Assembly: GCA_025450445.1 (NCBI GenBank)
Contig: JANWHN010000076.1
Coordinates: 2,859-66,858 of the forward strand
Length of the DNA stretch: 64,000 bases
Direction: 5' to 3'
Source: Anaerolineales bacterium
Lineage (GTDB): Bacteria > Chloroflexota > Anaerolineae > Anaerolineales > UBA11579
The notes beneath the pieces were generated by a model. The model was not told where the DNA came from. It was given only the letters and a program-made list of their open reading frames with translations, and ran no database searches. A program made the translations under genes and the position numbers. Positions 13,701 to 55,917 of this stretch are shown here, piece by piece. How positions within the stretch are numbered: position 1 is the stretch's first letter; each line of letters begins with the position of its first letter.

Positions 13701-13703
13701 AAG

Positions 13704-14468
13704 CTACTTGTTTAAGCCCCAGATAATACGCAAACCATCGAGAGTGAGCCAGGGCGCGAGGATCTTAATCACGTCGGTCTCACGTGAAACAATTTCGGCG
13801 AGACCGCCGGTCCCGATGACCTTCATCTCCGGGCCGAGCTCGGCGCGGAAGCGGGCGACGAGACCTTCAACCAATCCGACATAGCCGAAGAGCAGTCCAG
13901 ATTGCAAAGCGTGGGTGGTGTTGCGGCCGATCACGCTGGGCGGGCGAGCGATATCGACCCGCATCAGCTTGGCGCCGGCGGAGAACAGAGCTTCGGCGGC
14001 AACGCCGATGCCGGGAGCGATGGCGCCGCCGAGGTATTCGCCGTTGGCGGTGATGGCATCAAAGGTGGTGCCAGTGCCGAAGTCGACCACGCAAGCTGGG
14101 CCGCCGTAGAGATGCTGGACGGCGGCGGCGTCGACGATGCGATCGGCGCCGACCGCTTTGGGATCTTCGTAGAGGACGCGCACGCCGGTCTTGACGCCAG
14201 CGTCGACGATGAGCGGGTCCCTTTGCAAATAATTGCGGCAGGCTTCGACGACCTTGTTGGTCAGCGGTGGGACGACGGAAGCCAGGCAGATTCCAGTCAG
14301 CTTATCGACGGCGATGCCGGCATTGGCGAACATGCCGACGAACTGCAAACCATATTCATCGGGCATGCTGGCGTGATCGGTGGCGATGCGCCAGCGCGGG
14401 CCGAGCGTCTCGCCGTCGTAGAGGCCGAGGGTGATGTTCGTGTTACCAACGTCAACTGCGAGCAACAT
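13704..14468 (-). CDS. coaX: type III pantothenate kinase
   Basis: 254 aa with LLAVDVGNTNITLGLY and VVDFGTGTTFDA (ASKHA phosphate motifs of CoaX). Confidence 0.95.
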   Translation of the reverse strand: MLLAVDVGNTNITLGLYDGETLGPRWRIATDHASMPDEYGLQFVGMFANAGIAVDKLTGICLASVVPPLTNKVVEACRNYLQRDPLIVDAGVKTGVRVLYEDPKAVGADRIVDAAAVQHLYGGPACVVDFGTGTTFDAITANGEYLGGAIAPGIGVAAEALFSAGAKLMRVDIARPPSVIGRNTTHALQSGLLFGYVGLVEGLVARFRAELGPEMKVIGTGGLAEIVSRETDVIKILAPWLTLDGLRIIWGLNK

Positions 14469-14477
14469 AGCGACTCC

Positions 14478-15311
14478 TTAGGACAAGAGAACGTTATCGA
14501 TGAGGCGGGTTTTGCCAATGAAAACGGCCAGCGAGAGCAAGGCATCGTTTTCGATCTGATTGAGTTCTTGGAGAGTGAGTGAATCTGCGCATGAAACGTA
14601 TTGCAGGCGGGCTAGAGGTTCTTGTTTGAGCACGTCGTGCATCGCGGCGCGGAGGGCGTCGCCGCTGTGCTCGCCGGCTTCGTAGGAGGTCTTGGCAGCG
14701 GAGAGAGCGCGGTGCAGCACAGGGGCGGCTTGACGCTCCTCGGCAGAGAGGTAGCTGTTGCGGCTGGACATGGCCAAGCCGTCCGGCTCACGCAGGGTCG
14801 GGCCGACGACGATCTCGAGCGGGAAGTTGAGGTCGCGGGTCATCTGTTTGATGACAGCGACTTGCTGGGCATCCTTTTGGCCGAAGTAGGCTGACTGCGG
14901 CTGGACGGCATTGAACAGCTTGGCGACCACGGTGGCGACGCCGCGGAAATGTCCGGGCCGTGAAGCGCCTTCAAGCGGCTCAGTGACGCCCTCGACCGAG
15001 ACCCAGGTGGCGAAACCGGGCGGATAGACGTCATCCGGGGTGGGCAACCAGACGAGATCGACGCCGGCGTCAGCGAGCATCTTCAGATCTTTCGGAATAT
15101 CGCGCGGGTAAGCGGAGAGATCTTCGTTGGGACCGAACTGAGCCGGGTTGACGAAAATGCTAACGACGACTGAGGCGTTTGCTTTCTTGGCCAACTCGAC
15201 CAGCGAGATGTGACCAGCGTGCAAGAAGCCCATAGTGGGAACAAACCCGATCGGCTCGGCCAGCGATTTGCGGGCGGCGCGCAATTCTTCCAGGCTTACG
15301 ACTTGCTTCAC
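14478..15311 (-). CDS. panC: pantoate--beta-alanine ligase
   Basis: Contains VPTMGFLHAGHISLV (HxGH). The ORF extends to ATG 15341. GTG 15311 forms a GTGA overlap with the panE stop and gives the usual ~23-aa distance to the VPTMG motif. Confidence 0.9.
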   Translation of the reverse strand: MKQVVSLEELRAARKSLAEPIGFVPTMGFLHAGHISLVELAKKANASVVVSIFVNPAQFGPNEDLSAYPRDIPKDLKMLADAGVDLVWLPTPDDVYPPGFATWVSVEGVTEPLEGASRPGHFRGVATVVAKLFNAVQPQSAYFGQKDAQQVAVIKQMTRDLNFPLEIVVGPTLREPDGLAMSSRNSYLSAEERQAAPVLHRALSAAKTSYEAGEHSGDALRAAMHDVLKQEPLARLQYVSCADSLTLQELNQIENDALLSLAVFIGKTRLIDNVLLS

Positions 15312-16219
15312 GCGGGCCTCAATGCGCTGACGAGCTTCCACATCATCTCGTTGGCAGGAGTTGGCACGCCCAAGGCTTTGCCGGCTTCGACAACCGCGCC
15401 GCAGATGGCGTCGATCTCGGTTTGGGCTTCGCGGCGCACATCTTGCAGCATCGAAGAGATGTTGGCGGCGGTGCGCTGGGCAACGTCTTCGGCGGCGGCA
15501 ACCGGGTCAGCGAAGTTGAGGATGACGCCCTTCTTGTGGGCAACATCGGCGACTTCGCGGGCGAGAGCGGCGCTGATCTCGCGGGCGGTGGAGCGAGTCA
15601 GTAATTCGCCGTTGGGAATATCGAGCAACGCGGTGAGCGGATTGATGGCTGCGTTGACGACGAGCTTGCTCCATGCGAGGGCATCAACATCTTCGACCAC
15701 TTCGGTGGCGAAGTTTGCCGCTGTAAGCAAATCTACAAGAGCAGAAATGCGGGCGTGATTGCCGAACGTGATCGTGCCATCACCGCCGGCACGGACTTCG
15801 CCGGGGCCAAGGAGTGTGGCGCCGTTGGTGCTGATGCCGAAGGCGACGCGCTCGGCGCCAAGGGCGGCAACCAGCTTCTCGCGATTACCGAGCCCGTTCT
15901 GCAATGTGAGGGCGATGCCATCGACGGCCAGGCTCTCGAATAATTGATGAGCGGCATGTTCGGTCTGCCAGGCCTTGACCAAAACGAGCGCAACTTTTGC
16001 GCCGGCAAATTCTTTGGGATCGCTGCCGGCGCGAACGACATAGTTGCGCTTCTTGCCATCCGGCAAGACCAACGTGACGCCGCGATTGTTGAGCGCAGCC
16101 AAGCCCTCGGCCCAATTGCCTAGGATGCTGACATGCTGACCGGCGGCAGCCAAACGGGCAGCGAACAAGCAACCAAGCGCCCCTGTGCCGACGATGAGGA
16201 CTGAGTCGTTAGGACTCAC
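15308..16219 (-). CDS. panE: 2-dehydropantoate 2-reductase (ketopantoate reductase)
   Basis: 303 aa with an N-terminal Rossmann motif VLIVGTGALGCLFAARLAAAG and ApbA/PanE-like length and context. Confidence 0.85.
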   Translation of the reverse strand: MSPNDSVLIVGTGALGCLFAARLAAAGQHVSILGNWAEGLAALNNRGVTLVLPDGKKRNYVVRAGSDPKEFAGAKVALVLVKAWQTEHAAHQLFESLAVDGIALTLQNGLGNREKLVAALGAERVAFGISTNGATLLGPGEVRAGGDGTITFGNHARISALVDLLTAANFATEVVEDVDALAWSKLVVNAAINPLTALLDIPNGELLTRSTAREISAALAREVADVAHKKGVILNFADPVAAAEDVAQRTAANISSMLQDVRREAQTEIDAICGAVVEAGKALGVPTPANEMMWKLVSALRPA

Positions 16220-17105
16220 CCAATTCCTTGAGCAAGGCTTGCCATTGCTCTTCTTTGATGGTCACGCTGTGTTCGTCAGTTGGGAAGCTGCGGGCCTCGA
16301 CATCATTTTTAAATCCGGTGAAGGCGTCGTTCATCACGCTGTGCATGCTGGCATACTGTTTGACGAACTTGGGCGTGAAGCGATCGAAGAGACCGAGGAG
16401 ATCGTGAGTGACGAGGACCTGACCGTCGCAGCCGATGCCGGCGCCGATGCCGATAGTGGGGATGGATAATTTTTTAGAGACCCATTCAGCGAGACGGGCG
16501 GGAACAGATTCGAGGACGACGCTGAACGCGCCGGCTTCTTCAAGGGAAAAAGCATCGTCGATCAATTTTTTGGCAGCGGAACTGGTGCGGGCTTGCGGGC
16601 GAAACCCGCCAAGAGTGTTGACGCTTTGCGGAGTGAGGCCGAGGTGGCCCATCACCGGGATGCCGGCGGCCACAATCTGGCGCACGGCTTCGGCGCGCTC
16701 GCGGCCGCCTTCGAGCTTGACCGCGTCCATGCCGGCTTCCTGCAAAAAGCGGCCGGCGTTGGCGACGGCTTGTTCAACGGAAACCTGATAGGACATGAAG
16801 GGCATATCGCCGATGAGCAGTGCGTAGTGAGCGCCGCGCGAAACGGCGCGAGAGTGATGAAGCATGTCATCCATGGTGACGGGCAGCGTGTTGGGGTAGC
16901 CGAGCACGACCATGCCGAGAGAATCGCCGACGAGGATGGCGTCAATGCCGGCCCGGTCGACTGCCAGCGCGGTCGGATAATCGTAGGCGGTGAGCATCGT
17001 GATGACCTCACCATCTTTTTTCTTTTGGCGGAATAAACGGGTGGTTACCTTGGCGCGCTCAGTTTCACCGGCCTTGGTTTTGACCTTGGGTGTTTCTGTG
17101 GACAC
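16209..17105 (-). CDS. panB: 3-methyl-2-oxobutanoate hydroxymethyltransferase
   Basis: Contains MLTAYDYPTALAVDRAGIDAILVGDSLGMVVLG. GTG 17105 is preceded by GAGGAGGG. The track's 338-aa version (start 17225) would run through the leader hairpins. Confidence 0.9.
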   Translation of the reverse strand: MSTETPKVKTKAGETERAKVTTRLFRQKKKDGEVITMLTAYDYPTALAVDRAGIDAILVGDSLGMVVLGYPNTLPVTMDDMLHHSRAVSRGAHYALLIGDMPFMSYQVSVEQAVANAGRFLQEAGMDAVKLEGGRERAEAVRQIVAAGIPVMGHLGLTPQSVNTLGGFRPQARTSSAAKKLIDDAFSLEEAGAFSVVLESVPARLAEWVSKKLSIPTIGIGAGIGCDGQVLVTHDLLGLFDRFTPKFVKQYASMHSVMNDAFTGFKNDVEARSFPTDEHSVTIKEEQWQALLKELGES

Positions 17106-17276
17106 AGTACCCTCCTCGATGGGTAGAGTCTTAGATTTACAACCTGCCTTTTGCAGGCAGTAAATCTTTAAAACAAAAAACCGCCTGCATGAACAAGGCG
17201 GTCGGACGTGACCTATTACGGCCACAGTGAACCTCTAGTTTGTCCGCCGTCTCGGCCCTTACGGGTCCAAGCAGCT
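17106..17276 (-). promoter_or_regulatory. structured 5' leader of the panB operon with intrinsic terminator (candidate riboswitch/attenuator, possibly the pan motif)
   Basis: On the minus strand there are three stem elements: GGACCC-GUAA-GGGCC (17254-17268), CGGAC...GUCCG (17242-17246 / 17203-17207), and the enclosed GUGGCC-GUAAUA-GGUCAC (17208-17225). These are followed by CCGCCU-9 nt-AGGCGG + UUUUUUGUUUU (17172-17201). A further CUGCCU-5 nt-AGGCAG hairpin (17144-17160) precedes the RBS. Confidence 0.4.
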
Positions 17277-17450: not shown

Positions 17451-18182
17451 TTATTTCTCGTAGCCCATTTTGCTTAGATAAGGCTCGAAGGCTTTGTTGG
17501 CGGCTTCGAGCTGGGCGGAGGTGAGAGCGGTGCGGAAGCGCTCCGCTTCGCCGTGTTGGAAATGCTGGCCTTTGCCGCCCTGGTTACCTTGATCGGAGCG
17601 ATAGAACTCGATGGCTTCGCGGACGTCCGAATCGCTGGGATCGGCGCCGAGGAAAAGCGCCAGGCGCTCAGCTTCAGCATCGAACTGGCTAACCAGGTTT
17701 TCATAACGCATAGCGTGGACGCCTTTTACCGCCATCCATTCTGTCCAGATCTGCAAATAAGACAGCATAAATTCTATCGCCGTATCCATGGTCTCAAGGA
17801 GGGTGAAGGCGTTGCGACGACCGGCGCCGCGGGAGCGCTGACCGTATTCGTAGGCAGAGAGCATGGCGGCGCGCGGGTCACGATAGACGTAGGTCACTTT
17901 CATTTGGCCCTCGCCCATCAGGCGCAGCGCGATTGGCGTAGGACCGGAATGGGTCTTGATGGCGAAGGTGTTGCCGAGACGGGAAGGAATGAGCACGGGC
18001 ACAAGGCGCTTGGCGCTGAGGGCGCGGATATTGCAATTGACCGCAGTGAGAATGGGAAATAAAAGGAAGAACTGACGGATGAGGCGCGCGTCCTGGCCGC
18101 CATTCGCCACAACCAGATCATGGACGAGGTTGTAGTGCCAGCCAGAGCCGGCGCGGGGCATGCCAGCGGCGAGAATGATCAT
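17451..18182 (-). CDS. sulfotransferase-family protein
   Basis: PAPS 5'-phosphosulfate-binding-like MPRAGSGWHYNLV and 3'-phosphate-binding-like YVYRDPRAAMLSAYEY. ATG 18182 (MIILAAG) is preferred over 18254. The C-terminus ends in GYEK. Confidence 0.75.
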   Translation of the reverse strand: MIILAAGMPRAGSGWHYNLVHDLVVANGGQDARLIRQFFLLFPILTAVNCNIRALSAKRLVPVLIPSRLGNTFAIKTHSGPTPIALRLMGEGQMKVTYVYRDPRAAMLSAYEYGQRSRGAGRRNAFTLLETMDTAIEFMLSYLQIWTEWMAVKGVHAMRYENLVSQFDAEAERLALFLGADPSDSDVREAIEFYRSDQGNQGGKGQHFQHGEAERFRTALTSAQLEAANKAFEPYLSKMGYEK

Positions 18183-18367
18183 GTGAGTTCTTGCGACCAA
18201 AAGAAGATCGCGTTGGAGTGTCCTAGTCGGCTGCGCCGACTCACGGAACTCCATGTGGGCCTTCCCAAATTGGTCGATTCGAGATACTTAGGACACATCG
18301 GCATAATGTGCAATATAATTTTTCGGCGGACGCGGTCATGTTACCATAGCAAAAGGAGTGCACAAAA

Positions 18368-18801: not shown

Positions 18802-20808
18802 CTAAGGAACGAACGAGAAGCGATAGGCCGCGGTCTGGCGAGTGAAGCGCGTGGTTCCGACCACGACCAGGGTCACATCGTCGCCATTGAGCGGGACGTC
18901 GACCACGTTGCCATCGGGAATGTCGATGTACTCAACCGTTTCTGCGTCGTGATTGATCACCGCGATGCGGAACGTTTGCGGCAGCACGTTAGTGACGCGG
19001 GCAAAGCCGAGCCCTTCCCAGCCACCGTCGCCAGCTTCAAAATCTTCTGAGTAGCCGATCTCATCGATGGTGATGTCATCGATCAGGAAGCCTTCGCCGT
19101 TCACAGCCGCGTCGGTGACGTATTCGAAGCGCAGTAGAACCTGCTGACCAGCGTATTGAGAGATGTCGACAGTTTCTTGAGTCCATTCTGAAACGTTGCC
19201 ACCACCGGAAAGACCGGTGAAGCCCCAGCCATAGCTGTTGCCGGTCGGGTTGGTGTCGGTGCCGCTGGGCGTAGTGATGAAGTCCCAGTCGTCCCCATTG
19301 TTGGTGGAGCCGAGCAAGTAGACGTAATCCCAGTCGGTCTCGATGTCGAACCAGGTCTGGAAGGACAGATTGATGTCGCCGGACACGCCAGAGAAATCGA
19401 AGGCGCGGGTCAAGGTCATGTCGGAAACGTCGCCCTTGTTGGACCAGAAGGCATAATCGCCGGAGTAAGCCGAAGCCGGTAACAGGCCGGTGGAGGTTGA
19501 CCCCTCAAAGCGCAGAGTTCCACCGCAAGCTAGACTAATGTAGTCGGCCCCATACTGATTGACGGAGCGAGTTTGAGGATCTGTTGAACAATCAGCAGTC
19601 TCAGTGGCACTCACGGGGAAATGCAAGGAATCTGGATATTGCGAATAGCCGTAACGGCCATCGGCAAAAGAGGGATCCGCGAGATAGTTAGCCACGGCCC
19701 AATCCAAGACCACGTCATCGCCAACAAATGGAGAGCCCGTTGACGGGTTTGCAATCCCTTCGGCTAGAAGGACATCATCTACGCTGTCCATGCCGTTAGC
19801 CGGATCGGCCACTAAAGCTTGAGTAGCTTCCTTGCCAAAGCGTTCCAAGAAGTAGGTGACAAACAAACAGCCAGCGCCGTAGTGAGGGGTGGTGGCATTG
19901 CTGTCGTTGGGCCAGTCATTCAGGGATACATCGGGATCTACTAAGTACTCGGAAGCAAAATCACAGGCTCCGTATCCGTTCAAAGAAGACGCCAACTCAG
20001 ACATACCCTCATTCAGCCAGCTGGTTTCATTTTGATCTCGATAGGCATGGATCATGTGCTGGAATTCATGGGCAAGCACGCCATAGGTATAAACGTCATC
20101 GAGTGCGCTGTTATCGGAGTTGAAAACAAACATTTCGGCTGCGTTCGAGTACTCATTTGCCAAAGGATGGATCCCGTCGTTGGACGAGAAATACCCAGCG
20201 ATACTAAATCCGATGCCGGGCGTGTAAAGAACGTAAATGTGGGGGTCGTTATCGATGCCAGGGAAGAACTCCTGACCAAAGAATTCGCGATCGGTGGGAA
20301 CGATATCGTTTTCGAATTCCTGAGCCAGAGCTACCAGGTCGCCCTCGTCGTAGCTGACGCCTTCTTCCACCCAGAAGTAAGCAACTGGGCCTTCATAGCG
20401 AAGAACAGCATTTACCTGAGAGCTAAGGTCAGTATCGTTGTTAGTAATCCAGAAGCTGCGCTCGTCCCCAATGCTGTATTCACCTGGAAAGGGGACCGTG
20501 TCAGGAATGTTCTCAATTCCCTTGAGACGATCAGCTAGATCTTCCGGATCGTTTTCGGGAACTATAGTGTTCTCCAGTGTCAACAAAGTTTCATCTGACG
20601 GCATTTCGCCGGATTGAAAATCAGCAGGGGTCGGATCTGCGGAAGAGGAGTCTGTTGGCGGAGAAAATTCGCTTAGGGTGCTAAGCAGGCCGGGTTCCTC
20701 GCTGAGGAACCATAATGCGCCGAAACCGCCAAGGGCTACACAGGCCACGCAGGCGATGACCGCGACCAACAACACAATTCCGATAATGAGCAGGGTTCTT
20801 TGATTCAT
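18802..20808 (-). CDS. membrane-anchored secreted zinc metallopeptidase (HExxH; M6/InhA-like)
   Basis: 668 aa with an N-terminal TM (LLIIGIVLLVAVIACVACVALGGF) and zinc motif VLAHEFQHMIH. The large C-terminal beta-rich region is rich in D/G/W/Y. Family assignment is tentative. Confidence 0.75.
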   Translation of the reverse strand: MNQRTLLIIGIVLLVAVIACVACVALGGFGALWFLSEEPGLLSTLSEFSPPTDSSSADPTPADFQSGEMPSDETLLTLENTIVPENDPEDLADRLKGIENIPDTVPFPGEYSIGDERSFWITNNDTDLSSQVNAVLRYEGPVAYFWVEEGVSYDEGDLVALAQEFENDIVPTDREFFGQEFFPGIDNDPHIYVLYTPGIGFSIAGYFSSNDGIHPLANEYSNAAEMFVFNSDNSALDDVYTYGVLAHEFQHMIHAYRDQNETSWLNEGMSELASSLNGYGACDFASEYLVDPDVSLNDWPNDSNATTPHYGAGCLFVTYFLERFGKEATQALVADPANGMDSVDDVLLAEGIANPSTGSPFVGDDVVLDWAVANYLADPSFADGRYGYSQYPDSLHFPVSATETADCSTDPQTRSVNQYGADYISLACGGTLRFEGSTSTGLLPASAYSGDYAFWSNKGDVSDMTLTRAFDFSGVSGDINLSFQTWFDIETDWDYVYLLGSTNNGDDWDFITTPSGTDTNPTGNSYGWGFTGLSGGGNVSEWTQETVDISQYAGQQVLLRFEYVTDAAVNGEGFLIDDITIDEIGYSEDFEAGDGGWEGLGFARVTNVLPQTFRIAVINHDAETVEYIDIPDGNVVDVPLNGDDVTLVVVGTTRFTRQTAAYRFSFVP

Positions 20809-22268
20809 GATTTCCTTCCGAGGCGGAATTCTTTAGGATAGTAAGGGGAAAGTCCAGCAATAATGCCCAATATAACCCACATGATGGGAAAGGTGAATGA
20901 ATCCTGAGTTAGATTGCGCAGAACCAGCGCGAGCCAAGCGAACAAGCCAGCGATGGCGACGAAACGCAGCGTGCTGTCTCCGGAGATGAACAGGCGCCGG
21001 ATGATGGCAACGAAGGAAAGAAGGAAGGCGACAAAAAGCCAGAAGCCAGGCAAGCCGGTTTCGGCGAGCAAGCGGACGTAAAGGCTCTTAGTGTTTGGAA
21101 TGAGATCCGAATCGGGGCTGAGCTGGCGGGCGATCTCCGGCAGGTTGAACGACCACTCCGGAAAATTCTGGAGCAGGGTCAGCCCGCTGGCGCCCATGCC
21201 CACGCCCGTAAGCGGCGTGCTTTCGTAAAGGCGATAGCCGGCGACGGCGTAGGCCAAACGCGGCCCGGCGCTAATGTCGACGAGGTAGTCAAGCGGATCA
21301 TCGGCTTCGGTGATCCGCCAGATGTTGGCAAAGTATTCGTAGTCGGACAGAAAGTTTACCGACACAAAAGCGATCAGCAAGATTCCGACAACCAAGCCAG
21401 ATCGAATCAGCATAGGAGTAGCGCGTTGCTTTTGTCGAGATCGTCTAAACGGGGTTATGAACCAAGACCAAGCGGCGCGCAAGTTTGATCTACCCGCAAG
21501 CAGGGTTACTAAAACAATACAGAGCAACCCGGTAAGCAAGCCGCTGCGAGAGTACGTGAAAACTAGCACGGCCAATGACAAAACAAACAGCGAAGGCTCG
21601 ACCCACTTGCGTTTGGTTAGGGAGCGAGCGCTAAGTAAAGCGGCGAACAGCCACGGCAGGAAAAAGATGACGAGCTGATCGGCCAGCCAAGCTGGCTCAT
21701 AGGCGAAACCGCTGATGCGGCGCTGCTGGAGAGGCCGGGTGGAGATAAAAGTTTGCAGCTGGTTGACCCAACTGCGCGGGATTAAGGAAGTGTTGACGGC
21801 GACGGCCTGGATCAGAGACCAGACGATGGTTAGTGCTAAGCCGGCGTAGATCCATTTCAGGGACCAGTTGAGATCGTCCTTGGTGCGATTCATCCAGAAG
21901 GCAACGAAGAAAAAAAGTAGACCGATAAGAACCGAAAACCAACCGCGCAAGGCGCGTTCGTCATAGGAAAAATCGCGCATGGGCAACGGCGCCTGCAGCA
22001 AGCCGATAAACGTAAAAGCGAGGGCGACAAAGAGGAAGGCTAGCAACGGTTTAATGTTGGTGGGCAGGGCGATGCGGCGGCGCTGAAGAAAGATAATGAG
22101 TAAGACAATGACCAGCAGAGCCAGAGGATAGAGCGCCAACGGCTTGACCAAAGTGCGCCCGAGACCAGGAATGTAGCGAAAGGTTGTGATCGGCAAGGTC
22201 AGCAGGACGAAACCCCACAGCCAGCGTGCGACGCGCTCGAGGCGCGGCAAACTGAAAAATTCGGCCAT
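20805..22268 (-). CDS. O-antigen ligase/polymerase-family (Wzy_C domain) membrane protein
   Basis: 487 aa with at least 10 TM helices. The FTYSRSGLLTGLLCIVLV region and a large loop are typical of WaaL/Wzy_C/O-oligosaccharyltransferase proteins. ATGA overlap with the peptidase gene. Confidence 0.8.
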   Translation of the reverse strand: MAEFFSLPRLERVARWLWGFVLLTLPITTFRYIPGLGRTLVKPLALYPLALLVIVLLIIFLQRRRIALPTNIKPLLAFLFVALAFTFIGLLQAPLPMRDFSYDERALRGWFSVLIGLLFFFVAFWMNRTKDDLNWSLKWIYAGLALTIVWSLIQAVAVNTSLIPRSWVNQLQTFISTRPLQQRRISGFAYEPAWLADQLVIFFLPWLFAALLSARSLTKRKWVEPSLFVLSLAVLVFTYSRSGLLTGLLCIVLVTLLAGRSNLRAAWSWFITPFRRSRQKQRATPMLIRSGLVVGILLIAFVSVNFLSDYEYFANIWRITEADDPLDYLVDISAGPRLAYAVAGYRLYESTPLTGVGMGASGLTLLQNFPEWSFNLPEIARQLSPDSDLIPNTKSLYVRLLAETGLPGFWLFVAFLLSFVAIIRRLFISGDSTLRFVAIAGLFAWLALVLRNLTQDSFTFPIMWVILGIIAGLSPYYPKEFRLGRKS

Positions 22269-23005
22269 TATTTGAATTTAGATGGACGGACTAGCACATA
22301 AGTCGCGGCAGCTAGTGCGCTGACCAGCGAACCGGCCAATAAATAAGTGGCCTGGCTAACACTGCGCTCAACTGGCAAATCTTCTGCCTGACTGACGCTA
22401 ATCTCGATATACATCGAAATGCCTTGCGTATGCTCGGCGAGAAACGCGATCTCATCCAACAATTCTTCGATGCGGGCTTGATCGGGTTCGGATGCGGCCA
22501 GCTCAGCATTTAATTCTGCGCGAGCGGATTGCAATTCAGGTGAGGCGGTCATCGCAGCGCGGGCTGCATCTACGAAAGCCTGCGCCCAGGCACCCGCCAA
22601 CTGCTGGGCGGTAGCAGGATCACCATCATCGGCGTACAAGTGCCAGCCGCCGTCAGACGGGTGAGCAAGCTGCAAAATATCGGGGCGCAATTCTGCGACG
22701 CTAATGCCTGATTCTTGCGCTACCTGTTCCATGACAACATCGGACCAAGCGAGTTGTTCCAAGCGCTCAGTTTCCCGCTGCAAAAATTGAAAGAGAGCCC
22801 GGTCGGGGTAGTACTGCCAGGCTTCTTCGAGATTGTGATCGACGACCACGGTAGCGCGAGCGCGGTAATCCGGCGGGGCGACCAAGTAGACGACCCAAGC
22901 CAGCAGGGCGCCAGCCAGCGCACCCAGCAGCCAAAGACGCCAGTTGCCGAAAAGGTCGGCGAGCGGATCGTTGGTTGGATTGAAACGAGATTTGCGCTTG
23001 GGCAT
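22268..23005 (-). CDS. Wzz-like polysaccharide chain-length determinant / co-polymerase-like protein
   Basis: 245 aa with an N-terminal TM followed by PPDYRARATVVV, a coiled acidic middle and a C-terminal TM (LLAGSLVSALAAATYVLV). This is PCP topology. Confidence 0.55.
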   Translation of the reverse strand: MPKRKSRFNPTNDPLADLFGNWRLWLLGALAGALLAWVVYLVAPPDYRARATVVVDHNLEEAWQYYPDRALFQFLQRETERLEQLAWSDVVMEQVAQESGISVAELRPDILQLAHPSDGGWHLYADDGDPATAQQLAGAWAQAFVDAARAAMTASPELQSARAELNAELAASEPDQARIEELLDEIAFLAEHTQGISMYIEISVSQAEDLPVERSVSQATYLLAGSLVSALAAATYVLVRPSKFK

Positions 23006-23006
23006 G

Positions 23007-23798
23007 TTAATCGCGAACTCCGGCCATGCGCTGGCGGCGATAGCGAATTATTGGGAAAAGCAATTTACGCAGCCAATATTTGGCGGTGATGATCGAGAGC
23101 GGGCTGCCACCCTGGCGGCGATGGACGGTGAGCATGTCGTCCCAAGCGTGCATGTCGTTCTGAATGGTCTTTGAGTCAGCGTGGAGGCGGAATTCCGCCC
23201 AGAGGCGGGGGTGATAGTGCAAGGTGCTGATCTTGGCCAATCGCACCCAAAAATCATAATCCATGGCAAAGGTTAGGTTTTCATCAAGCGGACCAGCCTG
23301 CCACCAGAGCGCCGAACGCCAGAAGGTAGCCTGCTGCGGGATGTGCACATAGCCTTCGAGCAAGCGAGCGTAGTCGGTTTGGTGGGCGGCGAAGCGACCG
23401 ATCAGGCGACCTTCGGCGTCGATGAAATCTGCATCACCATAGACCAGGCCGATATTGGAATGAGCTTCCAGGAATTCGACAGCTTCGCGCACAGCGCCAG
23501 GTTTGAGGCGATCGTCGGCGTTGAGCCAGGCCATATATTTGCCTTTGGCCTTGGCGAACCCTTTATTGATCGCATCAGCCTGGCCGCGATCGCGCTCCGA
23601 GACCCAAAACGCCAACTGGCGCTGCAGGCGCTTGATGATGGCTGGGCTTTCGTCGGTGGAGCCGCCGTCGATGACGATGTATTCAATGTTGGCGTGGTCC
23701 TGGGAGAGGACCGAATCCATGGCCGCTTGAAGGAATGCGGCCTGATTGTAGGAGGGCGTGACGATGGAGACGAGCGGTTGCATCGCCATTACGACCAA
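23007..23798 (-). CDS. family-2 glycosyltransferase
   Basis: [24 protein letters not shown]...[14 protein letters not shown]...WLNADD (DxD-type). Paralogous to the N-terminal half of the next gene. Confidence 0.9.
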
Positions 23799-25633
23799 CT
23801 CTCGTTGTTGTAATAAGGATGGGCAACATCTTTGGTTAGATCGTGGATGCGGGAAATTTCTTCGGGGGTCAGGCGATGTTTCCAGTTTTCGAGATTGGCG
23901 GCGCTATCGAGCTTGGTGGAGTAGATCGAACTCAGGGAAACTTCTTGTGGATTCTCGACGCCTGTCGAGCGCGAGATTCTTTTCTTTGCGCGCGAAGTGA
24001 AAAACAAGCCGAGGTGGTTATAGAGTTTCGAGAAGCCTGCAATTGGGTCGCGGGATAAATCTTCATGCAAGATCACGCCAAGCTGAGGATTTTCTCGCTG
24101 CCTGCGGTGAGTCACGGTGGCAATTATGCGCCACAGCAAACTGCCCTGCAGGATGACATCACTGGGAGCTTTGGTCACGGCTTCGAGCTCGGTGCGGAAC
24201 GGCTCGAGCAGATCGCGCATCAGGAGTGGCTGGGCGAGCAGATCGTTGAAGTCGAAGGACCAGTCGAGGCGCTTGAGGCTGCTGACGAACGCGGCCGGAT
24301 GGCGGAGCACGACGACGACATCGCAATTGAGGCGCTCAGCGAACCAGGACGTTGAGAAGACGGCGAAGGGGTCTTTAAGAAGCACGCGGCGGCGCTGGAT
24401 GCGGCCGATGGTGAAATTGGCCCAATCGCGGAGCATGCGCAGGAAATCTTTGAGCGAGCGTAGGGATTTTATTTCGCGCAAGAGGTGGTAGTCGAGCTTT
24501 AGGGTCTCATTGAACGGCTGAACAAATTCTGTTTCATTCTCTTTGCAAATATACGTGTACCAATGCGTGACCGGGGAGCGCATCACGCCGGGACGGTGCC
24601 AGACGTTGAGCGGCTCGCTGACATAGGCCACATCGCCGTTCTGGGCAAGCATGCGCCCCACCCAGGTGGTGCCGGAGCGATGGAGACCGGTCACCATGAT
24701 TGGGCGGCGGTTTGCTGCCGGGTTGCGGTGCAGCCAGCCGAGCCCGAGCAAACTGAGAAGCGCGTAGCCGATGCGCTTCCAATGGGCAAGCGTGTAAGTT
24801 GGATGCAAAGATAAGGCGCGGGCGTAAGAGCCTAGTGCGCGAGCAGGCTCGCCGCCATCGAGCAGATAGCGCGCCTGCAGCCGATAGGCACCGCCGTGGA
24901 CGCGGCGCGAGTGCTTGCGAACAAGATCGCCCAGAACCGGTTCCGTTTTGGCCAATTCGAGAATGCGGAAGGCTTCTTCGCCGAAACGGGCGGCGTGGGC
25001 TACGTTCTTTGCGGCCGCGTGATGGCGAGCGGCGGCCCAAACTCGCGGCATGTGACGGATGGAAACAAGCCGCGCCATGCGCAGCCAGAGATGATGATCG
25101 AAGAGGAAGTTGTAGGTAGGATCGAGGTGGCCGGCTTCTTCGAGCACCGCGCGGCGCATAAACACGGATGGCTGCCCGATGATGCGGAAGGTGAACAGGT
25201 CGAGTAGGTCGTACTGACCATAGCGAATTGTGTTGAAGACTTTGCCATCTGCGTCGATCGAATCAAGTTCACCGTAAACCAATCCGGCGTCGGGGTGCTG
25301 CGCAAATGCGGCGACGGCTTGGCGGATGGCGCCAGGGCGATAGATGTCATCGGAATTTAGCCAGGCGACGAATTGGCCGCGGGCGCGAGCGAAACCTTTG
25401 TTAATCGCGGCGGCTTGGCCTTCGTCTGGCTCGGAAACCCACCAAGAAATGCGGTCGGAATATTTCTTGATGATTTCGACCGATCCATCGGTCGAGCCAC
25501 CGTCGATAACCAGGTATTCGATGTTTGGATAATCCTGCTCAAGAACTGAGAGGATGGTTTGCTCGAGATATGCGGCTTGATTAAAGGATGGCGTGATGAT
25601 CGAAACGAGAGGCTGATCTTGTTTCTCTGCCAT
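23789..25633 (-). CDS. fusion protein: N-terminal GT2 glycosyltransferase + C-terminal sulfotransferase
   Basis: 614 aa. N-terminal half: [24 protein letters not shown]...[10 protein letters not shown]...WLNSDD. C-terminal half: [19 protein letters not shown] (5'-PSB loop) and [17 protein letters not shown] (3'-PB). Confidence 0.85.
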
Positions 25634-25637: not shown

Positions 25638-27170
25638 TCAAGACCCGCTGCGCAAATCGTAAATTAAATAGCCGTCGCCTTCGGCAAAGACCGGGTAGTG
25701 AGCTGCTAAGTATTCCTGCAGCAATGGCTGCTGGTCCAGCTGGTTGAAGGTGGTGATCAGGAAATAATCCATGCCAGCCGTGCGGGTCAGAAAGAATTGC
25801 TCGAAGTCATCGGGTTCATTGCCGCGCAGACCAGCGAGGTAAAGCTCGCCGGTGACCGGCCACAGCTCGACCCGGCGCCAGCCATAGTAGTTGAGCAGGT
25901 TGCCATAGTGTTGGACTAGGCCGATTGTCTTGCCTTCGGCGGGAATAGCCGCGCCAACCCGTTCCCAATATAGGGCTTCGGAGCGATAGTCAACACCGAG
26001 CAGGTTCGAGCGATTGGTCCAGGCGGTGATGGCTAGAGCGCCAACAAGCAGACCTACAAACAAGAAACGCCAACCGCGCGATTGTCCGGCGATCTTCTTA
26101 ACCACAAGATCGAAGAGCGGCGCCATGGAAAGAGCTGCGATGGGGACGAGCATGAGGTGGTAATAGGTGTGGGTGGTGGTTTGGTGCGGGAGCGTGATGC
26201 CGTAAGCCGCGTAGCCGAGCCAGGCGCCGATCAGCAGCCAGCGGGCAAGCGGCGGCGCGATCAGCACGCCGGCGGCGGCCAGCACCAATCGGGCGCTGCC
26301 GAGAATCTCGGTGAGCATATCGGCCCAGCGAAAATAGAATTCGGGCTGGAATGCTAGCGGCATGAGAGCGACGACCCAGTTCTGGAAATAATTTCCGGAT
26401 GTGCCGCCAATGCTGAGAAGGTAATAGAGCCCAGCCGGCAAAATGGCAATCAACGCGACAGCCCAGACCTGGCGATTGCGCAATGCAGCCCTTGCCCCAA
26501 AGGCGGCCAGAACCAAAGCGGCGAGCACGCCTAGCAGCAAATAAGCGGCGAAGACTTTGACCAGGATCGCGATCGCGGAGGCAACCGCGGCGATGAGCGC
26601 CCACTTCCATTCCCGTTCGCTGCCCCAACGATAAGCAGCGTACATCGCCAAGATCAACCAGGCGACCATGAAAGGATCGGGCTGAAACGACCGGCTGGCC
26701 TGAAAACCAAACGGAAGGAATAAATAGTAGGCAACTGCGATCAGAGCCGCGGCGGGGCCGGTGAATTGCAGGGCCAGTGCATACAACGGGATTGCGGCGA
26801 GAACCCAGAAGAGCGATGTAAAAATGCGGGCGACCCACAAATTTTCGCCACCGGAAAGCCAATAGCCAGCGGCGACAATGGTTTCAGGGATCGGCGGCTC
26901 AAGCTCGGCGACGGAGAAGCGCTGGGCGAGTGCCTCTTCTTGGACAACGGGATCAGTTGATGGCGAAAGTTGGTAGTAGATGCTGCGGGCGATCAGTGCG
27001 CCCCGGTATTGGCGGGTGGGATGAAAATCGAGCGGCAGGTCGGTGAGATCGACCATGCGCAAGCCGAATCCAAATAGCATCAGACCGGCCAAAGTGAACT
27101 CCGCCCAGTGAGTTTGAATACGCGAACGTATGGAACGCGATTTGTTTTTTTGTTTCTTTCTTGGAGTCAT
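25638..27170 (-). CDS. GT-C fold membrane glycosyltransferase (ArnT/PMT, GT39/83-like)
   Basis: 510 aa, polytopic. The N-terminal loop [30 protein letters not shown] and overall architecture resemble ArnT/PMT_2 proteins. Confidence 0.7.
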
Positions 27171-31406: not shown

Positions 31407-32267
31407 TTACCAGTTCTGATTTTGTTCATATCCGAGCGTAATTAGAAGGTCGCCACAGACTTCTTTGAAGATTTTTTTGTTGGATTCGTTGAAATGTTCT
31501 CGCCAGCCACCGCTTTCGCCTTTGCGAAACGTGGGAGATTTTTGAGGATCGATGGCTTTGGTAAGCACTTCTACTGATTCTGCAGGATTTTTGGCGCTGA
31601 CAAAACCGCGGTTTACTGCATGATCGAAGATCTGCAGGAGCGAGATTTGCGGATCAGCAATTAGATCTTCGAAGCGCAAAGTGAGAACTTCTTTACGCTC
31701 AAACCACGGCAGGTAGGGCTCAAAGCGTTCACGAATGTTTGGGAACGGATACTCCAATTCGGGACGTCCAAAAATACTGACTTTTAGATGCTCGTCGAAG
31801 TCCTTGAGGTGATTTACGTAATAGTCATGATGTACATGCCGGTTTGCGAGATCGGTTACGTAGAAAACATGCGAGACTGCTACATCACGCGGATCGCGAT
31901 AAATGAAATAAGGAGCCACGCCAGGGCGACAGAGTTCGGCGACAACTTCAGGAAAAGCGTGCAGGTGCCCGTAAGCGATGTCACCTGAGGAAAGGCGTTT
32001 GAGGTCTTTTAGGATCTGCTGGATAGGCCGCGGTTTACCGCTTTCGCCTTCAAAGGTGAGCACCGGCGGGAGCCCACTTTCGACAACCGGGCCAAGCTGC
32101 GTGAACCCGGCCAAGATCTGGGTCAATAAGTGCGTGCCGCTTTTGGGGAACGAGATGCCGAACAAGATCGGCATCGTGTCGATGGCTACATTGGGAAAGC
32201 GGCGTTGGGCTGCGGCGCGACGCAAGGAGCGGCGAGCCAAGCGTGCGGGAAGATCGAATTTCACCAT
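31407..32267 (-). CDS. sulfotransferase
   Basis: 286 aa with FPKSGTHLLTQIL and FIYRDPRDVAVSHVFY. The C-terminus ends in LGYEQNQNW. Confidence 0.8.
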   Translation of the reverse strand: MVKFDLPARLARRSLRRAAAQRRFPNVAIDTMPILFGISFPKSGTHLLTQILAGFTQLGPVVESGLPPVLTFEGESGKPRPIQQILKDLKRLSSGDIAYGHLHAFPEVVAELCRPGVAPYFIYRDPRDVAVSHVFYVTDLANRHVHHDYYVNHLKDFDEHLKVSIFGRPELEYPFPNIRERFEPYLPWFERKEVLTLRFEDLIADPQISLLQIFDHAVNRGFVSAKNPAESVEVLTKAIDPQKSPTFRKGESGGWREHFNESNKKIFKEVCGDLLITLGYEQNQNW

Positions 32268-33121
32268 TGGGCGTTCTTCTCATAACCAAGATTTTGGAGC
32301 AGGTTGCCCGTTTCCGATTTGAAGGTCTGCTTATTCGCTTCGGTGAAATGCTGGCGCCAGTCGCCGGTTTGGCCGCGGCGGAAGGTGCCGGAGGCTTGCG
32401 GGCGCAAGGCACCTTCGAGTGCCGGTTTCGCTTGTTCACGCGGCCGCGGATCGAAGCCGTGGGCCGCAAGGTGGTCGAGGACGCGATCGAGGGCGGCGCG
32501 GCGATCTAGGATCAAGTCTTCAAATCGCAGAGCGAAAACTGCGGGCTGCTGAAGCCACCCAACGTAGTGCTCGTACTTAGCAAAGATCGATGAAAGTTGA
32601 GCGCCCGGTTCCTGAACGCCTTTGATCGCTGCATCTATGCGCTGTTCCATGGTGGAAAGCGTTTCCGTGTAGTAACGGTGCATGCCGTGGCCGGGGTAAA
32701 TTTCGGTGGCGTAAAACACGTGCGAAACGATCACATCGCGTGGATCGCGATAGATAAAAAACGATGCAACATCAGACCGGGTTAGTTCGGCGATGAAAGG
32801 CTTACGGGCGTGCAAGTAGCTGTACGTGATGTCTCCCGGATTTAGCAAATGCAAATTTGCGAGGATCGCGTCGTCGCCAAGGTTGCGATTCTCTGCCGAG
32901 CGGCTTACTGGCGGCATGCCAGGGTCCACAAATGGGCCGATACGGGTTAATCCTTGCAACACCTGAAACAAAAGATGCGAGCCGGACTTGGGCATCGCGT
33001 TGCCGATGACGATCGGCATGCGGGCTAGTTCGGCGGCGCCCCAGCGGCGCGCAGCGGCGGCGCGGCGGGCGCGCCAGCGCAGCATTTTGAATGGCTGCTT
33101 GATTTTGGAAACGATCGACAT
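32261..33121 (-). CDS. sulfotransferase (tandem paralogue)
   Basis: 286 aa with MPKSGSHLLFQVL and FIYRDPRDVIVSHVFY. The C-terminus ends in LGYEKNAQW. Confidence 0.8.
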   Translation of the reverse strand: MSIVSKIKQPFKMLRWRARRAAAARRWGAAELARMPIVIGNAMPKSGSHLLFQVLQGLTRIGPFVDPGMPPVSRSAENRNLGDDAILANLHLLNPGDITYSYLHARKPFIAELTRSDVASFFIYRDPRDVIVSHVFYATEIYPGHGMHRYYTETLSTMEQRIDAAIKGVQEPGAQLSSIFAKYEHYVGWLQQPAVFALRFEDLILDRRAALDRVLDHLAAHGFDPRPREQAKPALEGALRPQASGTFRRGQTGDWRQHFTEANKQTFKSETGNLLQNLGYEKNAQW

Positions 33122-33125: not shown

Positions 33126-34502
33126 TTAATTCAGATGCGGATCGCTAGGCCTCGGGACATCGCTTAGCGAGACCAGATCCTTGGCCATGAATTTCTCGAT
33201 GATCTCCCACACAGTCTCGACGGGTAAATCGAGCTCGGCGGCGATTTCTGCGGGGCGGCGGGTGCCATCACAACGCTCCATGATCTCGAAGAGGCGCTTA
33301 TGGCCGGCGGGATTGGTTTTGTAATCGATCCAAATGCCGTAGCCCGAGGCGAAGACCTCGCCCTTGAAATGATTGACCACGTATCCGCGATCGTCGTGGA
33401 CGCTCGCTTTCGGCGTTCCGTTTGGGCTCTTGCCAGGTTGAAAGCGGGTTTTATCGAATGCCGAAATTAAGCCCAGAACTAGATCGACTGAAGCCTGCAG
33501 GCGATCCGCAGAAATAATTTCGGGTGTGTCCAGGCTGGAATGGTATTCGGGATACGGAGCGAAGCGCGATTCGGGAAGATGCGGATTCACGACGCGGGAC
33601 AATGAGAGCATGGGCACGCGCACGCCGGGGGAATTGAACTGGCGCTCATCGTTGTCGATGATCGTGCGATATGGGCCAACGTAAGCGTCTGGGGCAAGTT
33701 TTTTAAAGGCAGCGACCAATCTTTTATCCGTCGGACTTTCCGGCTGGAAGGAGGTTTGTAGCGCGGTGGGAGCATCGTTTCCAAGCATTTCGAGGAACAG
33801 ACCACCCTTCATTTTCGGAATCAAGTTCTCGTGCAGGCTTAAGTAGGCGATCGAACCTAAAGTTTCCGGGAAGAAAAGGAAACGATATGTGAAATGCGCT
33901 CTCGGTCCGGCGAGCAATCGGTTTGCGACCTCCACTCCGACTACGACGCCAGTGAGATCGTCGTTCACCATAGCGGGATGATCCAGATGGGCAGCAAGGA
34001 CGAAGCAATCTTCGACCTCGCCCGGCACCAGCACCTCGCCGATCTTGAGCTCGCCTGGAGTAAATTCGGTACGGATGACGACGCGGTAGCGATCCTCTTT
34101 TAGGGAATCGCACAGAGTTTGCGAAGCGCACAGGCCCCAATCGCGCTGATAATACTTAAACACGAACGGGATTGCGTCGGGCAGTTTGGGATGCACGTGC
34201 AGATGTTGTAGCAATTCTTCGCGGCTTACTTCGCCCTCAAAAGGCAGGGAATACGAAACAACATGCAGGGGGTGATCCGCGTAATCTAGAAGGAGCTTGC
34301 CATCCATTGTTTCCAAGTAAGCCTCGGAACAGGTCCATTTCTCAGGCACCGTCCAGGTCCATACTTTGGTGCCGGTGGGCACTGCGTGAATTGTCATCGG
34401 TAGTTCTTTTGCCAGCCGATTCAAAGCGTGATCGTAATCGTCCGAAACGATGTCGCGCTTGAGCGTCCAGAGCTCATTGACGAGCTCCATCATGCTAGCC
34501 AT
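33126..34502 (-). CDS. DUF4910/M28 aminopeptidase-like domain protein with C-terminal winged-helix
   Basis: 458 aa. CFVLAAHLDHPAMVNDDLTGVVVGVEVANRL resembles the M28-like metal site region. The C-terminal CDGTRRPAEIAAELDLPVETVWEIIEKF is wHTH-like. Confidence 0.6.
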   Translation of the reverse strand: MASMMELVNELWTLKRDIVSDDYDHALNRLAKELPMTIHAVPTGTKVWTWTVPEKWTCSEAYLETMDGKLLLDYADHPLHVVSYSLPFEGEVSREELLQHLHVHPKLPDAIPFVFKYYQRDWGLCASQTLCDSLKEDRYRVVIRTEFTPGELKIGEVLVPGEVEDCFVLAAHLDHPAMVNDDLTGVVVGVEVANRLLAGPRAHFTYRFLFFPETLGSIAYLSLHENLIPKMKGGLFLEMLGNDAPTALQTSFQPESPTDKRLVAAFKKLAPDAYVGPYRTIIDNDERQFNSPGVRVPMLSLSRVVNPHLPESRFAPYPEYHSSLDTPEIISADRLQASVDLVLGLISAFDKTRFQPGKSPNGTPKASVHDDRGYVVNHFKGEVFASGYGIWIDYKTNPAGHKRLFEIMERCDGTRRPAEIAAELDLPVETVWEIIEKFMAKDLVSLSDVPRPSDPHLN

Positions 34503-38773: not shown

Positions 38774-38804
38774 TTTTTGTTTTGCGCCCCCCAGCGCTTC
38801 CCAG

Positions 38805-43339: not shown

Positions 43340-45100
<1,761 letters not shown>

Positions 45101-45180: not shown

Positions 45181-45267
45181 CAAGCAGTCAACAACGCTAA
45201 AAATGATACCACGAAGAAAATCTGATGACCCGAACCGATGTTCGCATTAATTGCCACGAAGACCGGT

Positions 45268-45276
45268 TGTTATAAT
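45268..45276 (+). promoter_or_regulatory. extended -10 promoter element TGTTATAAT
   Basis: Exact TGnTATAAT at 45268-45276, 14 nt upstream of ATG 45290. Confidence 0.45.
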
Positions 45277-45289
45277 CCGCGCGCCCAAT

Positions 45290-54601: not shown

Positions 54602-54605
54602 TTTT

Positions 54606-54673: not shown

Positions 54674-54698
54674 TGTGTAGACATGTGCGATTCCGTAA

Positions 54699-55769: not shown

Positions 55770-55845
55770 TTTTACAAAAATAGAGGGGCGGTGTTACAGC
55801 AGGAGGGCTTGCGAAAATTGGTTATTCTGAAGAGAAGGTTGTAGG

Positions 55846-55907: not shown

Positions 55908-55917
55908 AAGGGAAAGG

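Follow-up and report, generated by a model that had tools for sequence, protein, structure and literature searches.

What does a bacterium gain from joining a glycosyltransferase and a sulfotransferase in one protein, and does such a protein really exist? This question is raised by a gene in a 64,000-nucleotide stretch of DNA (hereafter the window) from an Anaerolineales bacterium of the Chloroflexota (GenBank:GCA_025450445.1, contig JANWHN010000076.1, positions 2,859 to 66,858), which had been predicted, from the DNA letters and their open reading frames (ORFs), to encode a single polypeptide composed of a family 2 glycosyltransferase (GT2) followed by a sulfotransferase using 3′-phosphoadenosine 5′-phosphosulfate (PAPS). 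Our analysis revealed that the fusion is genuine and that a single polypeptide is encoded. We consider it likely that this protein is a bifunctional enzyme that takes part in assembling a sulfated glycan in Anaerolineales, and that it would both glycosylate and sulfate a lipid-linked intermediate.

The fused gene and reality of the join

The gene lies within a long run of minus-strand genes, and the following parts were recognized in it.

23789..25633, minus strand: whole fused gene with ATG start, 614 amino acids (aa), consisting of GT2 domain, helical domain, hydrophobic helix and sulfotransferase domain
25019..25612, minus strand: GT2 catalytic domain of GT-A fold, aa 8-205
24788..25009, minus strand: alpha-helical domain after the GT-A fold, probably acceptor-binding, aa 209-282
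24734..24781, minus strand: hydrophobic/amphipathic helix, probably for membrane association, aa 285-300
24704..24733, minus strand: short linker at the fusion joint, aa 301-310
23792..24703, minus strand: PAPS-dependent sulfotransferase domain, aa 311-614

This layout was based on the ORF list, Pfam matches, AlphaFold2 (AF2) models and homologous protein clusters. Both domains scored above the Pfam cut-offs within the one ORF, as had been predicted, and the motifs quoted in the original prediction were all present, namely VIDGGSTD (aa 42-49), WLNSDD (aa 91-96), LHRSGTTW (aa 317-324) and two others at aa 11-23 and 442-452. The complete 614-aa protein was modelled with a mean predicted local distance difference test score (pLDDT) of 90.2 and a predicted template-modelling score (pTM) of 0.83.

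A survey of this architecture among 5.8 billion proteins revealed about 100 clusters with the same GT2 and sulfotransferase domains (612-656 aa, 43-99% identity), which came from assemblies deposited at JGI, ENA, NCBI and Logan; the sole name attached to them was 'glycosyltransferase', and those clusters with a named organism were from Anaerolineales, Anaerolineae or Chloroflexi/Chloroflexota. In a scan covering one genome per GTDB species, with ORFs called from stop to stop, 543 genomes had a relative, and the best 80, which were classified, were almost without exception metagenome-assembled genomes (MAGs) of Anaerolineales/Chloroflexota. An uninterrupted fused ORF was found in 27 of these 80, Illumina and long-read assemblies being among them. 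Alignment of 36 full-length homologues showed the same mean column conservation for the GT2 and sulfotransferase domains (0.68 each) and a lower value for the middle region (0.55), with Y270, P278 and P311 near the joint being invariant or conserved in at least 90% of the sequences.

The original prediction had itself pointed to a sequencing or assembly frameshift by which two genes could have been joined artificially. It is true that many relatives possess two genes here, 17 of 31 adjacent pairs being in the same frame and typically separated by a single stop codon, and that such errors do occur in this type of data, since the contig of cluster P0097 contains obvious frameshift-split genes. 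However, the same uninterrupted ORF recurs in independent assemblies (the clusters and the 27 species-level genomes), the sequence of the joint region is conserved among the fused members, and the fused forms cluster on a tree of the sulfotransferase domain, so that exactly the same error would have to be assumed for all of them. An artefactual join in the window is thus extremely unlikely. In the contig of P0097 (L005, from ENA), the SDR, fusion and InhA-like genes are in pieces, probably owing to long-read frameshift errors; the 'split' state there is probably itself artefactual, the reverse of a false join, which calls for caution with 'split' calls from MAGs.

Glycosyltransferase domain

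Two motifs of the GT2 domain are referred to below.

25487..25510, minus strand: nucleotide-binding motif VIDGGSTD, aa 42-49, with D44 and D49 invariant
25346..25357, minus strand: NSDD, the DxD metal/diphosphate motif, aa 93-96, with D95 and D96 invariant

The domain matched Glycos_transf_2 (PF00535) over aa 11-130 (E 5e-31, 108.3 bits versus a cut-off of 23.3) and Glyco_tranf_2_3 (PF13641) over aa 8-188. The AF2 model showed a GT-A, Rossmann-like fold with pLDDT above 90 for aa 10-205, and Foldseek matched the N-terminal half to WrtF, 6p61, K4CP, SpsA and TarP, with SpsA, K4CP and 6p61 superposing at a root-mean-square deviation of 2.1-2.9 Å. By sequence, the best matches in the PDB were K4CP, the chondroitin polymerase of Escherichia coli K4 (2z86/2z87, E 3.8e-19), and WrtF (9omh, E 8.7e-16).

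Residues D44, D49, D95, D96 and D179 were invariant in 64 orthologues and in 67 paralogues encoded downstream of them. In K4CP it is the second GT2 domain (residues ~373-567) that matched best, its DSDD aligning with the NSDD of the window protein and a conserved Asp aligning with D179. K4CP is likewise a glycan enzyme with two catalytic domains; it differs in that both are GT2 domains, the polymer is unsulfated and the identity is ~20%, and we do not take the window enzyme to be processive or to make a glycosaminoglycan.

The best structural match of the N-terminal half was WrtF (Foldseek E 4e-15, TM-score normalized to the target 0.70-0.76). WrtF (PDB 9omh-9omn) is a GT2 fucosyltransferase acting on acceptors of the Rhizobium tropici O-polysaccharide repeat unit, and it consists of a GT-A fold, a C-terminal alpha-helical acceptor domain and an amphipathic membrane helix of ~20 aa (PMC12595478). 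The window protein shares the order of a GT-A domain (~200 aa), a helical domain and a terminal hydrophobic/amphipathic helix, whereas the identity is ~21% and WrtF has no sulfotransferase domain. In addition, WrtF is metal-independent, uses GDP-fucose and has G-A-D-D in place of N-S-D-D. Since N-S-D-D keeps both aspartates invariant, a canonical metal-dependent mechanism is more likely here, and the GT2 domain is probably inverting. None of the NCBIfam equivalogs for specific GT2 functions (TuaG, WcaE, PgaC and others) scored above its cut-off, the best being TuaG with 85.8 bits versus a cut-off of 400 and the rest far below, and therefore no specific function can be transferred to this domain.

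Region between the catalytic domains

In addition to the two domains described in the original prediction, a helical region of ~95 aa together with a hydrophobic helix (aa 209-300) was located between them. AF2 placed helices at aa 209-212, 214-229, 232-240, 242-259, 263-276 and 278-282 (pLDDT ~88-96); the same helical domain is present in unfused GT2 orthologues of 310-360 aa and, by analogy with the layout of WrtF, it is probably the acceptor-binding domain. The next helix (aa 285-300; AF2 helix 285-295) corresponds to the old C-terminus of the GT2 protein, an equivalent helix ending the split GT2 protein at locus L016. It is neither long nor hydrophobic enough for a transmembrane segment, and by comparison with WrtF it probably mediates membrane association. 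The linker at aa 301-310 coincides with the inter-domain minimum of pLDDT (~78), and this is where one gene stops and the other starts in split relatives.

A topology placing the sulfotransferase outside the cell was ruled out, as no segment had transmembrane-like hydrophobicity on the Kyte-Doolittle scale, the highest 19-residue mean of the whole protein being 1.23 and located in the sulfotransferase domain. As no transmembrane segment was predicted, the protein should be cytoplasmic. Both PAPS and nucleotide-diphosphate sugars are cytoplasmic. A separate sulfotransferase product from an internal start is unlikely, because M313 is not conserved (consensus PILVTG).

Sulfotransferase domain

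The sites expected for PAPS binding and catalysis were located as follows.

24662..24694, minus strand: 5′-phosphosulfate-binding loop, aa 314-324
24614..24616, minus strand: E340, candidate catalytic base, within invariant S339-E340-P341
24365..24376, minus strand: KDPF motif, aa 420-423, all four residues invariant, with K420 as candidate catalytic lysine
24278..24304, minus strand: 3′-phosphate-binding motif RHPAAFVSS, aa 444-452

Sulfotransfer_3 (PF13469) matched aa 311-544 (E 8e-10, 39.8 bits versus a cut-off of 27) and Sulfotransfer_1 (PF00685) matched aa 311-602 (E 4e-9, 36.7 bits versus a cut-off of 22). Modelled alone (aa 306-614), the domain reached a pLDDT of 93.1 and a pTM of 0.91. 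Foldseek gave 68 matches at E<=1e-3, and each one listed was a PAPS sulfotransferase, including the CurM sulfotransferase, the tyrosylprotein sulfotransferases TPST1/2, the olefin-synthase (OLS) sulfotransferase, Stf1, Stf9 and cytosolic SULTs; these matches were weak, with TM-scores of about 0.33-0.59 and 12-19% identity.

The 5′-phosphosulfate-binding loop lies at the junction of strand 312-316 and helix 319-329 of the model and aligned with the PIFVTGLVRTGTT loop of Stf1 (2zq5), and the 3′-phosphate-binding motif lies at the junction of strand 438-443 and helix 446-455. The original prediction would have been refuted by a loss of PAPS-binding residues, and none was found: G316, H318, R319, T322 and W324 were invariant both in the 36 full-length homologues and in a set of 17 fused and split sulfotransferase domains, as were R444, P446 and S452, with H445 being invariant in the former and conserved in at least 90% of the latter. 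S339-E340-P341 and the KDPF motif likewise did not vary in either set. Human TPST2 needs Arg78, Glu99 and Lys158 for activity (PMC10951654). The spacing of 21 residues between R319 and E340 matches that between Arg78 and Glu99, and the RSGTT-type loop and the subsequent conserved Lys are also as in TPST2. Based on invariance and this spacing, though not on superposition, E340 is a candidate for the catalytic base and K420 for the catalytic lysine.

Structurally, the top matches were TPST1/2 and the CurM and olefin-synthase sulfotransferases (3ap1, 5wrj, 4gbm, 4gox; E 4e-7 to 1e-5, TM-score 0.47-0.59), CurM also resembling the window protein in that its sulfotransferase is a domain of a multi-domain biosynthetic protein. 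They differ in genomic context and in their substrates, which are peptides or acyl-ACP hydroxyls and not glycans. At the sequence level, Stf1 was the sole solved protein with any match, in the 5′-phosphosulfate-binding loop and in a C-terminal 'HEDL...P...LY..LGL' region (E 0.015 with the single sequence, 0.004 with the profile). Mycobacterial Stf1 and Stf9 (2z6v) are likewise bacterial, whereas they are stand-alone proteins, and their TM-scores were just 0.33-0.44 with a marginal score. A profile alignment with TPST1 that included the KDPF region was weak (E 0.4-0.7). Membership of the TPST family was ruled out by this lack of significant sequence similarity, the resemblance being structural (TM-score ~0.5), although the domain may work in a TPST-like manner at its active site. 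Profile and fragment searches meant to place the catalytic residues by sequence alignment with TPST and CurM gave marginal matches or none.

Because similarity to characterized sulfotransferases is so low, one could suppose that one or other domain has lost catalysis and is kept for binding or regulation, e.g. as a PAPS/PAP sensor or a glycan-binding domain. This is very improbable, since the cofactor-binding and candidate catalytic positions of both domains do not vary among homologues of 43-99% identity, neither half is more conserved than the other, and the same residues are kept where each half occurs as a stand-alone protein. Judged from these residues, both active sites are apparently catalytically intact.

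The structural matches also raise the question of whether the sulfated substrate is a carbohydrate at all, as the best of them, CurM and the tyrosylprotein sulfotransferases, would suggest a lipid, a polyketide-like hydroxyl (as for CurM) or, with the TPST2-like Arg-Glu spacing, a protein tyrosine (as for TPST or RaxST). However, the matches are weak (TM-score ~0.5, 12-19% identity) and the fold is common to all PAPS sulfotransferases, while the gene was fused or adjacent to glycosyltransferase genes in every genome examined and distant members of the family also sit in glycan clusters. A non-carbohydrate substrate is therefore quite unlikely.

Origin of the fusion

The gene immediately downstream of the fusion encodes a second GT2 protein.

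23007..23798, minus strand: stand-alone GT2 paralogue of the fused GT2 domain

It was confirmed as a true paralogue, as had been proposed, by comparison with the fused protein (49% identity over 206 aa, E 6e-65). Its listed start is a TTG, and three codons downstream there is an ATG (MAMQPL, 23787-23789) that overlaps the TAA stop codon of the fusion as TAATG. It is likely that this ATG is the true start, which would imply translational coupling of the two genes. In nearly all loci, whether fused or split, the paralogue comes next.

Among the best 80 of the 543 genomes, besides the 27 fused loci, ~31 had a gene for GT2 plus the helical domain (310-360 aa) followed by a separate sulfotransferase gene (~315-330 aa), so that neighbouring genes for the two halves occur in ~31 of the 53 relatives without a fusion. 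About 8 of the 80 had an intervening stretch or gene between the halves, which was PMT_2 where it could be identified, and the remaining loci were cut by contig ends or had only the sulfotransferase and the paralogue visible. In one Anaerolineales clade (L064, L068, L071 and L085) the order is MptE, GT2 with helical domain, PMT_2, sulfotransferase, GT2, Wzz, Wzy and sulfotransferase, and the arrangement interrupted by PMT_2 was also listed for L052, L054, L063, L067, L072, L077 and L079. The module is thus conserved, whereas its internal gene order is not. One related genome possesses an orthologue of the GT2 plus helical part (362 aa) with no sulfotransferase gene adjacent to it.

In a rough neighbour-joining distance tree of the sulfotransferase domain, constructed without support values, the fused forms made up one broad clade, the exceptions being a basal split sequence and a sequence truncated at the end of its contig. 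Since the halves are separate but neighbouring in most other relatives, the fusion arose by the joining of two adjacent genes; it is a later, clade-specific event between the upstream GT2 plus helical gene and a sulfotransferase gene that was already located between the two GT2 paralogues. The original prediction had proposed a duplication followed by fusion. The order holds, because orthologue and downstream paralogue are found together in relatives regardless of fusion (64 and 67 sequences, respectively), which indicates that the GT2 duplication is old. The link between the two events does not hold, since the GT2 pair is present in fused and split loci alike.

Among the 31 adjacent pairs, the 17 that are in the same frame represent a modest excess over one third (binomial p = 0.011). 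In 15 of these 17, the genes are separated by a single stop codon, with an ATG a few codons beyond it. Junctions of this type were noted at loci L015, L019, L028, L030-L033, L035, L037, L038, L040, L043, L046, L048 and L049. Such an arrangement is a ready precursor or a remnant of the fusion, as loss of the stop codon would suffice to fuse the genes. Programmed read-through or recoding at the in-frame stops was ruled out: each of the three stop codons is used in some of the pairs, an ATG is found shortly afterwards, and the C-terminal tails are unlike the linker of the fused form. The split pairs are therefore ordinary adjacent genes.

The wider sulfotransferase family

An exhaustive HMMER search with the sulfotransferase domain alone, counted in clusters at 50% identity, revealed a family of 826 clusters at E<=1e-30 and 1878 at E<=1e-10. 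In the best 150 clusters, nearly all members were stand-alone proteins of 300-350 aa and just two were GT2-sulfotransferase fusions; the source names of the stand-alone members were uninformative. A distant stand-alone member sits among genes for GT2, GT4, methyltransferase and MurJ-like proteins. Another fusion, P0183 (L087:6001-8328), is a 775-aa protein in which an N-terminal sulfotransferase (42% identity) is followed by a GT4 of GT-B fold, and it was present on 22 contigs. Hence, this family has been joined to glycosyltransferases at least twice, with different domain orders and folds. The cluster around P0183 also contains a 1485-aa GT2/Glyphos_transf protein and large methyltransferases.

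Genes for glycan synthesis in the window

The following genes bear on the function of the fusion.

25638..27170, minus strand: PMT_2 (GT-C) membrane glycosyltransferase, a conserved neighbour identified by Pfam, with its TGA stop codon 4 nt upstream of the fusion ATG
22268-23005, minus strand: Wzz-like protein, a weak N-terminal Pfam match (E 3.6e-6, 27.6 bits versus 25.5)
20805-22268, minus strand: Wzy_C polymerase/ligase-like protein (Pfam E 5.5e-13)
43340..45100, minus strand: PAPS synthase with PUA_2, ATP-sulfurylase and APS-kinase domains (Pfam E 9e-84 and 4e-63)
31407..33121, minus strand: two tandem stand-alone sulfotransferases (31407-32267 and 32261-33121; Pfam), 44% identical to each other
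17451-18254 and 49510-50604: further sulfotransferases, making four non-fused ones with the tandem pair
38805-40913 and 53840-57042, minus strand: two NeuB-type synthases and three CTP_transf_3 CMP-sugar cytidylyltransferases
61595-63745: Wzm/Wzt ABC exporter

The Wzz-like and Wzy_C genes were syntenic downstream in relatives wherever the flank extended far enough. The PAPS synthase, encoded in the same gene run, would supply the sulfate donor. Five sulfotransferase domains in total are encoded in the window, together with further GT2, GT4 and PMT_2 genes. That the fused sulfotransferase is a duplicate of another one in the window was ruled out, as it had no BLAST similarity to any of the four (E > 2). 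The tandem ORFs overlap by 7 nt, their pairing is conserved in L001-L003, and neither showed BLAST kinship with the fused domain. Judging from the NeuB-type synthases and cytidylyltransferases, one or two acidic sugars in CMP-activated form are probable products of the locus. One CTP_transf_3 is fused to a HAD phosphatase domain (39678-40913), and PseB-like and RmlD-like genes as well as a gene for an MptE-like putative transferase accompany this set.

Proposed function of the fused protein

Our model starts from the fusion itself, two intact and conserved active sites, the folds, the descent from neighbouring genes and the surroundings in the genome, and adds to these a proposed membrane association, lipid-linked acceptor, order of reactions, donor sugar and sulfated position. 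The hydrophobic helix would hold the protein peripherally at the cytoplasmic face of the membrane and, with the sulfotransferase attached after the helix, both domains would be brought to the membrane surface. With a nucleotide-sugar as donor, the GT2 domain would add a sugar to an oligosaccharide linked to polyprenyl diphosphate, and the sulfotransferase would transfer sulfate from PAPS, made by the PAPS synthase of the locus, to the glycan intermediate, most simply to the sugar just added or to its neighbour. The paralogue, which is probably translationally coupled to the fusion, would then extend the glycan, and the Wzy_C, Wzz-like and PMT_2 proteins would polymerize or transfer it outside the cell. 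The product is most likely an undescribed sulfated cell-surface glycan.

The GT2-sulfotransferase fusion, the second fusion of sulfotransferase to GT4 and the adjacency of the genes suggest that sulfotransferase and glycosyltransferase act together, and the addition and subsequent sulfation of the same residue, as originally predicted, is plausible. Several observations weigh against the model as a whole. Many close relatives work with unfused halves, so that the covalent linkage is dispensable. The assignment of E340 and K420 draws on spacing and motif resemblance to TPST2, and the sequence similarity of the domain to solved sulfotransferases is marginal (E 0.004-0.7). Neither a Wzx flippase nor an initiating phosphoglycosyltransferase was recognized among the window ORFs of at least 180 aa that were scanned, for which reason a lipid-linked Wzy-type route is not fully established, and with Wzm/Wzt also present, two or more pathways may be encoded in the window. 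The missing flippase and initiating transferase might hide among ORFs that had no Pfam match, or might lie outside the window.

A different explanation is that the fusion merely tethers the sulfotransferase to the membrane-associated GT2 domain, securing stoichiometry and localization, while the sulfotransferase acts elsewhere or at another step, e.g. on a sugar added by the paralogous GT2 or another glycosyltransferase, or on the acceptor before glycosylation. It would agree with this explanation that the sulfotransferase was joined directly after the putative membrane helix, as expected for simple anchoring, that most relatives function with separate genes, and that one clade has PMT_2 between the GT2 plus helical gene and the sulfotransferase gene; moreover, the sulfotransferase gene of split genomes lies between two GT2 genes, and adjacency alone names no partner. 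On the other hand, the partners in a fusion usually interact or carry out consecutive steps, this sulfotransferase family was independently fused to GT4, and a pTM of 0.83 for the model of both domains points to a defined packing of the domains over a floppy tether. We regard tethering alone as a serious but less likely explanation, and the glycosylation and sulfation of a lipid-linked intermediate by the one protein as the preferred one.

Comparison with known systems and significance

Bifunctional glycan enzymes are common, K4CP and NDST being examples. Both domains of the window protein belong to known superfamilies, and fused proteins of this kind are already in public databases. A literature search found no published fusion of a glycosyltransferase and a sulfotransferase, the nearest reported case being a sulfotransferase joined to an alpha/beta-hydrolase in a brown alga, where the partner is not a glycosyltransferase (PMC6418280). 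NDST resembles the window protein in principle, as it has a PAPS sulfotransferase domain covalently joined to an enzyme that prepares the substrate (PMC10864358); it differs in that the partner is a deacetylase and not a glycosyltransferase and in being a eukaryotic Golgi enzyme.

The closest analogue of the proposed mechanism is the synechan (xss) cluster of Synechocystis PCC 6803, a Wzx/Wzy-type cluster with several glycosyltransferases and sulfotransferases, for which modification of the lipid-linked repeat unit at the cytoplasmic face has been proposed (PMC8205485). In contrast, the xss sulfotransferases are separate cyanobacterial proteins and a glycosyltransferase-sulfotransferase fusion was not described there, whereas the window locus has its own PAPS synthase and genes for nonulosonic acids.

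Much is known about the sulfated glycans of animals and algae and little about those of bacteria. The acceptor specificity of bacterial carbohydrate sulfotransferases is almost impossible to predict from sequence (PMC11625862). A natural fusion, together with its split relatives, pairs a sulfotransferase with a glycosyltransferase and thereby narrows the search for the substrate, and it provides a compact module with which sulfated oligosaccharides might be made enzymatically or by engineering. In one study of mat metagenomes, no sulfotransferase genes were reported from the Chloroflexi MAGs, and Anaerolineae were cited as sulfated-polysaccharide degraders (PMC9723792). Our results indicate that Anaerolineales, usually discussed as such degraders (PMC9723792), hold a conserved locus for making a sulfated glycan, which is relevant to the biology of their cell surfaces and sheaths in sediments, sludge and mats. 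More speculatively, the fusion could be an add-and-sulfate machine whose two active sites work one after the other on the same lipid-linked intermediate. It would then mark a conserved and hitherto unrecognized pathway for a sulfated, nonulosonic-acid-containing surface glycan across Anaerolineales, the first route to a sulfated glycoconjugate in Chloroflexota, and its sulfotransferase would define a large uncharacterized family (>800 clusters at 50% identity) of carbohydrate sulfotransferases in bacteria, one repeatedly fused to glycosyltransferases differing in fold; taken as a whole, this wider proposal is tentative.

Other genes in the window

The remaining features are listed below.

18802-20808, minus strand: InhA-like protein with MAM domain, 668 aa
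27171-28172, minus strand: MptE-like ORF with GTG start, 333 aa, upstream of PMT_2
33126-36934, minus strand: DUF4910/M28-like, Antibiotic_NAT and class II aminoacyl-tRNA-synthetase-like (weak tRNA-synt_2b) genes
45251-48522 (plus strand), 37193-38923 (minus strand) and 52941-53843 (minus strand): large ORFs with no significant Pfam match
11632-17225, minus strand: pantothenate/CoA operon (Dfp, CoaX, PanC, PanE, PanB)

The InhA-like gene always came after Wzy_C in close relatives, and its product may be secreted or located at the cell surface and be linked to the glycan as a target or as a processing enzyme. The MptE-like ORF overlaps the upstream SDR gene by ~190 nt; as its homologues in L001 and L002 have 270 aa, its start is probably ~60 codons downstream of the listed one. 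Two plus-strand ORFs among the large ones lacking a Pfam match break the minus-strand run. The genes at 33126-36934, of which the DUF4910/M28-like and Antibiotic_NAT genes were syntenic in relatives, may be a module for acylation or aminoacylation of amino sugars. It was also noticed that the pantothenate/CoA operon directly flanks the glycan cluster and that this adjacency is kept in relatives L001 and L002, with 56-68% identity.

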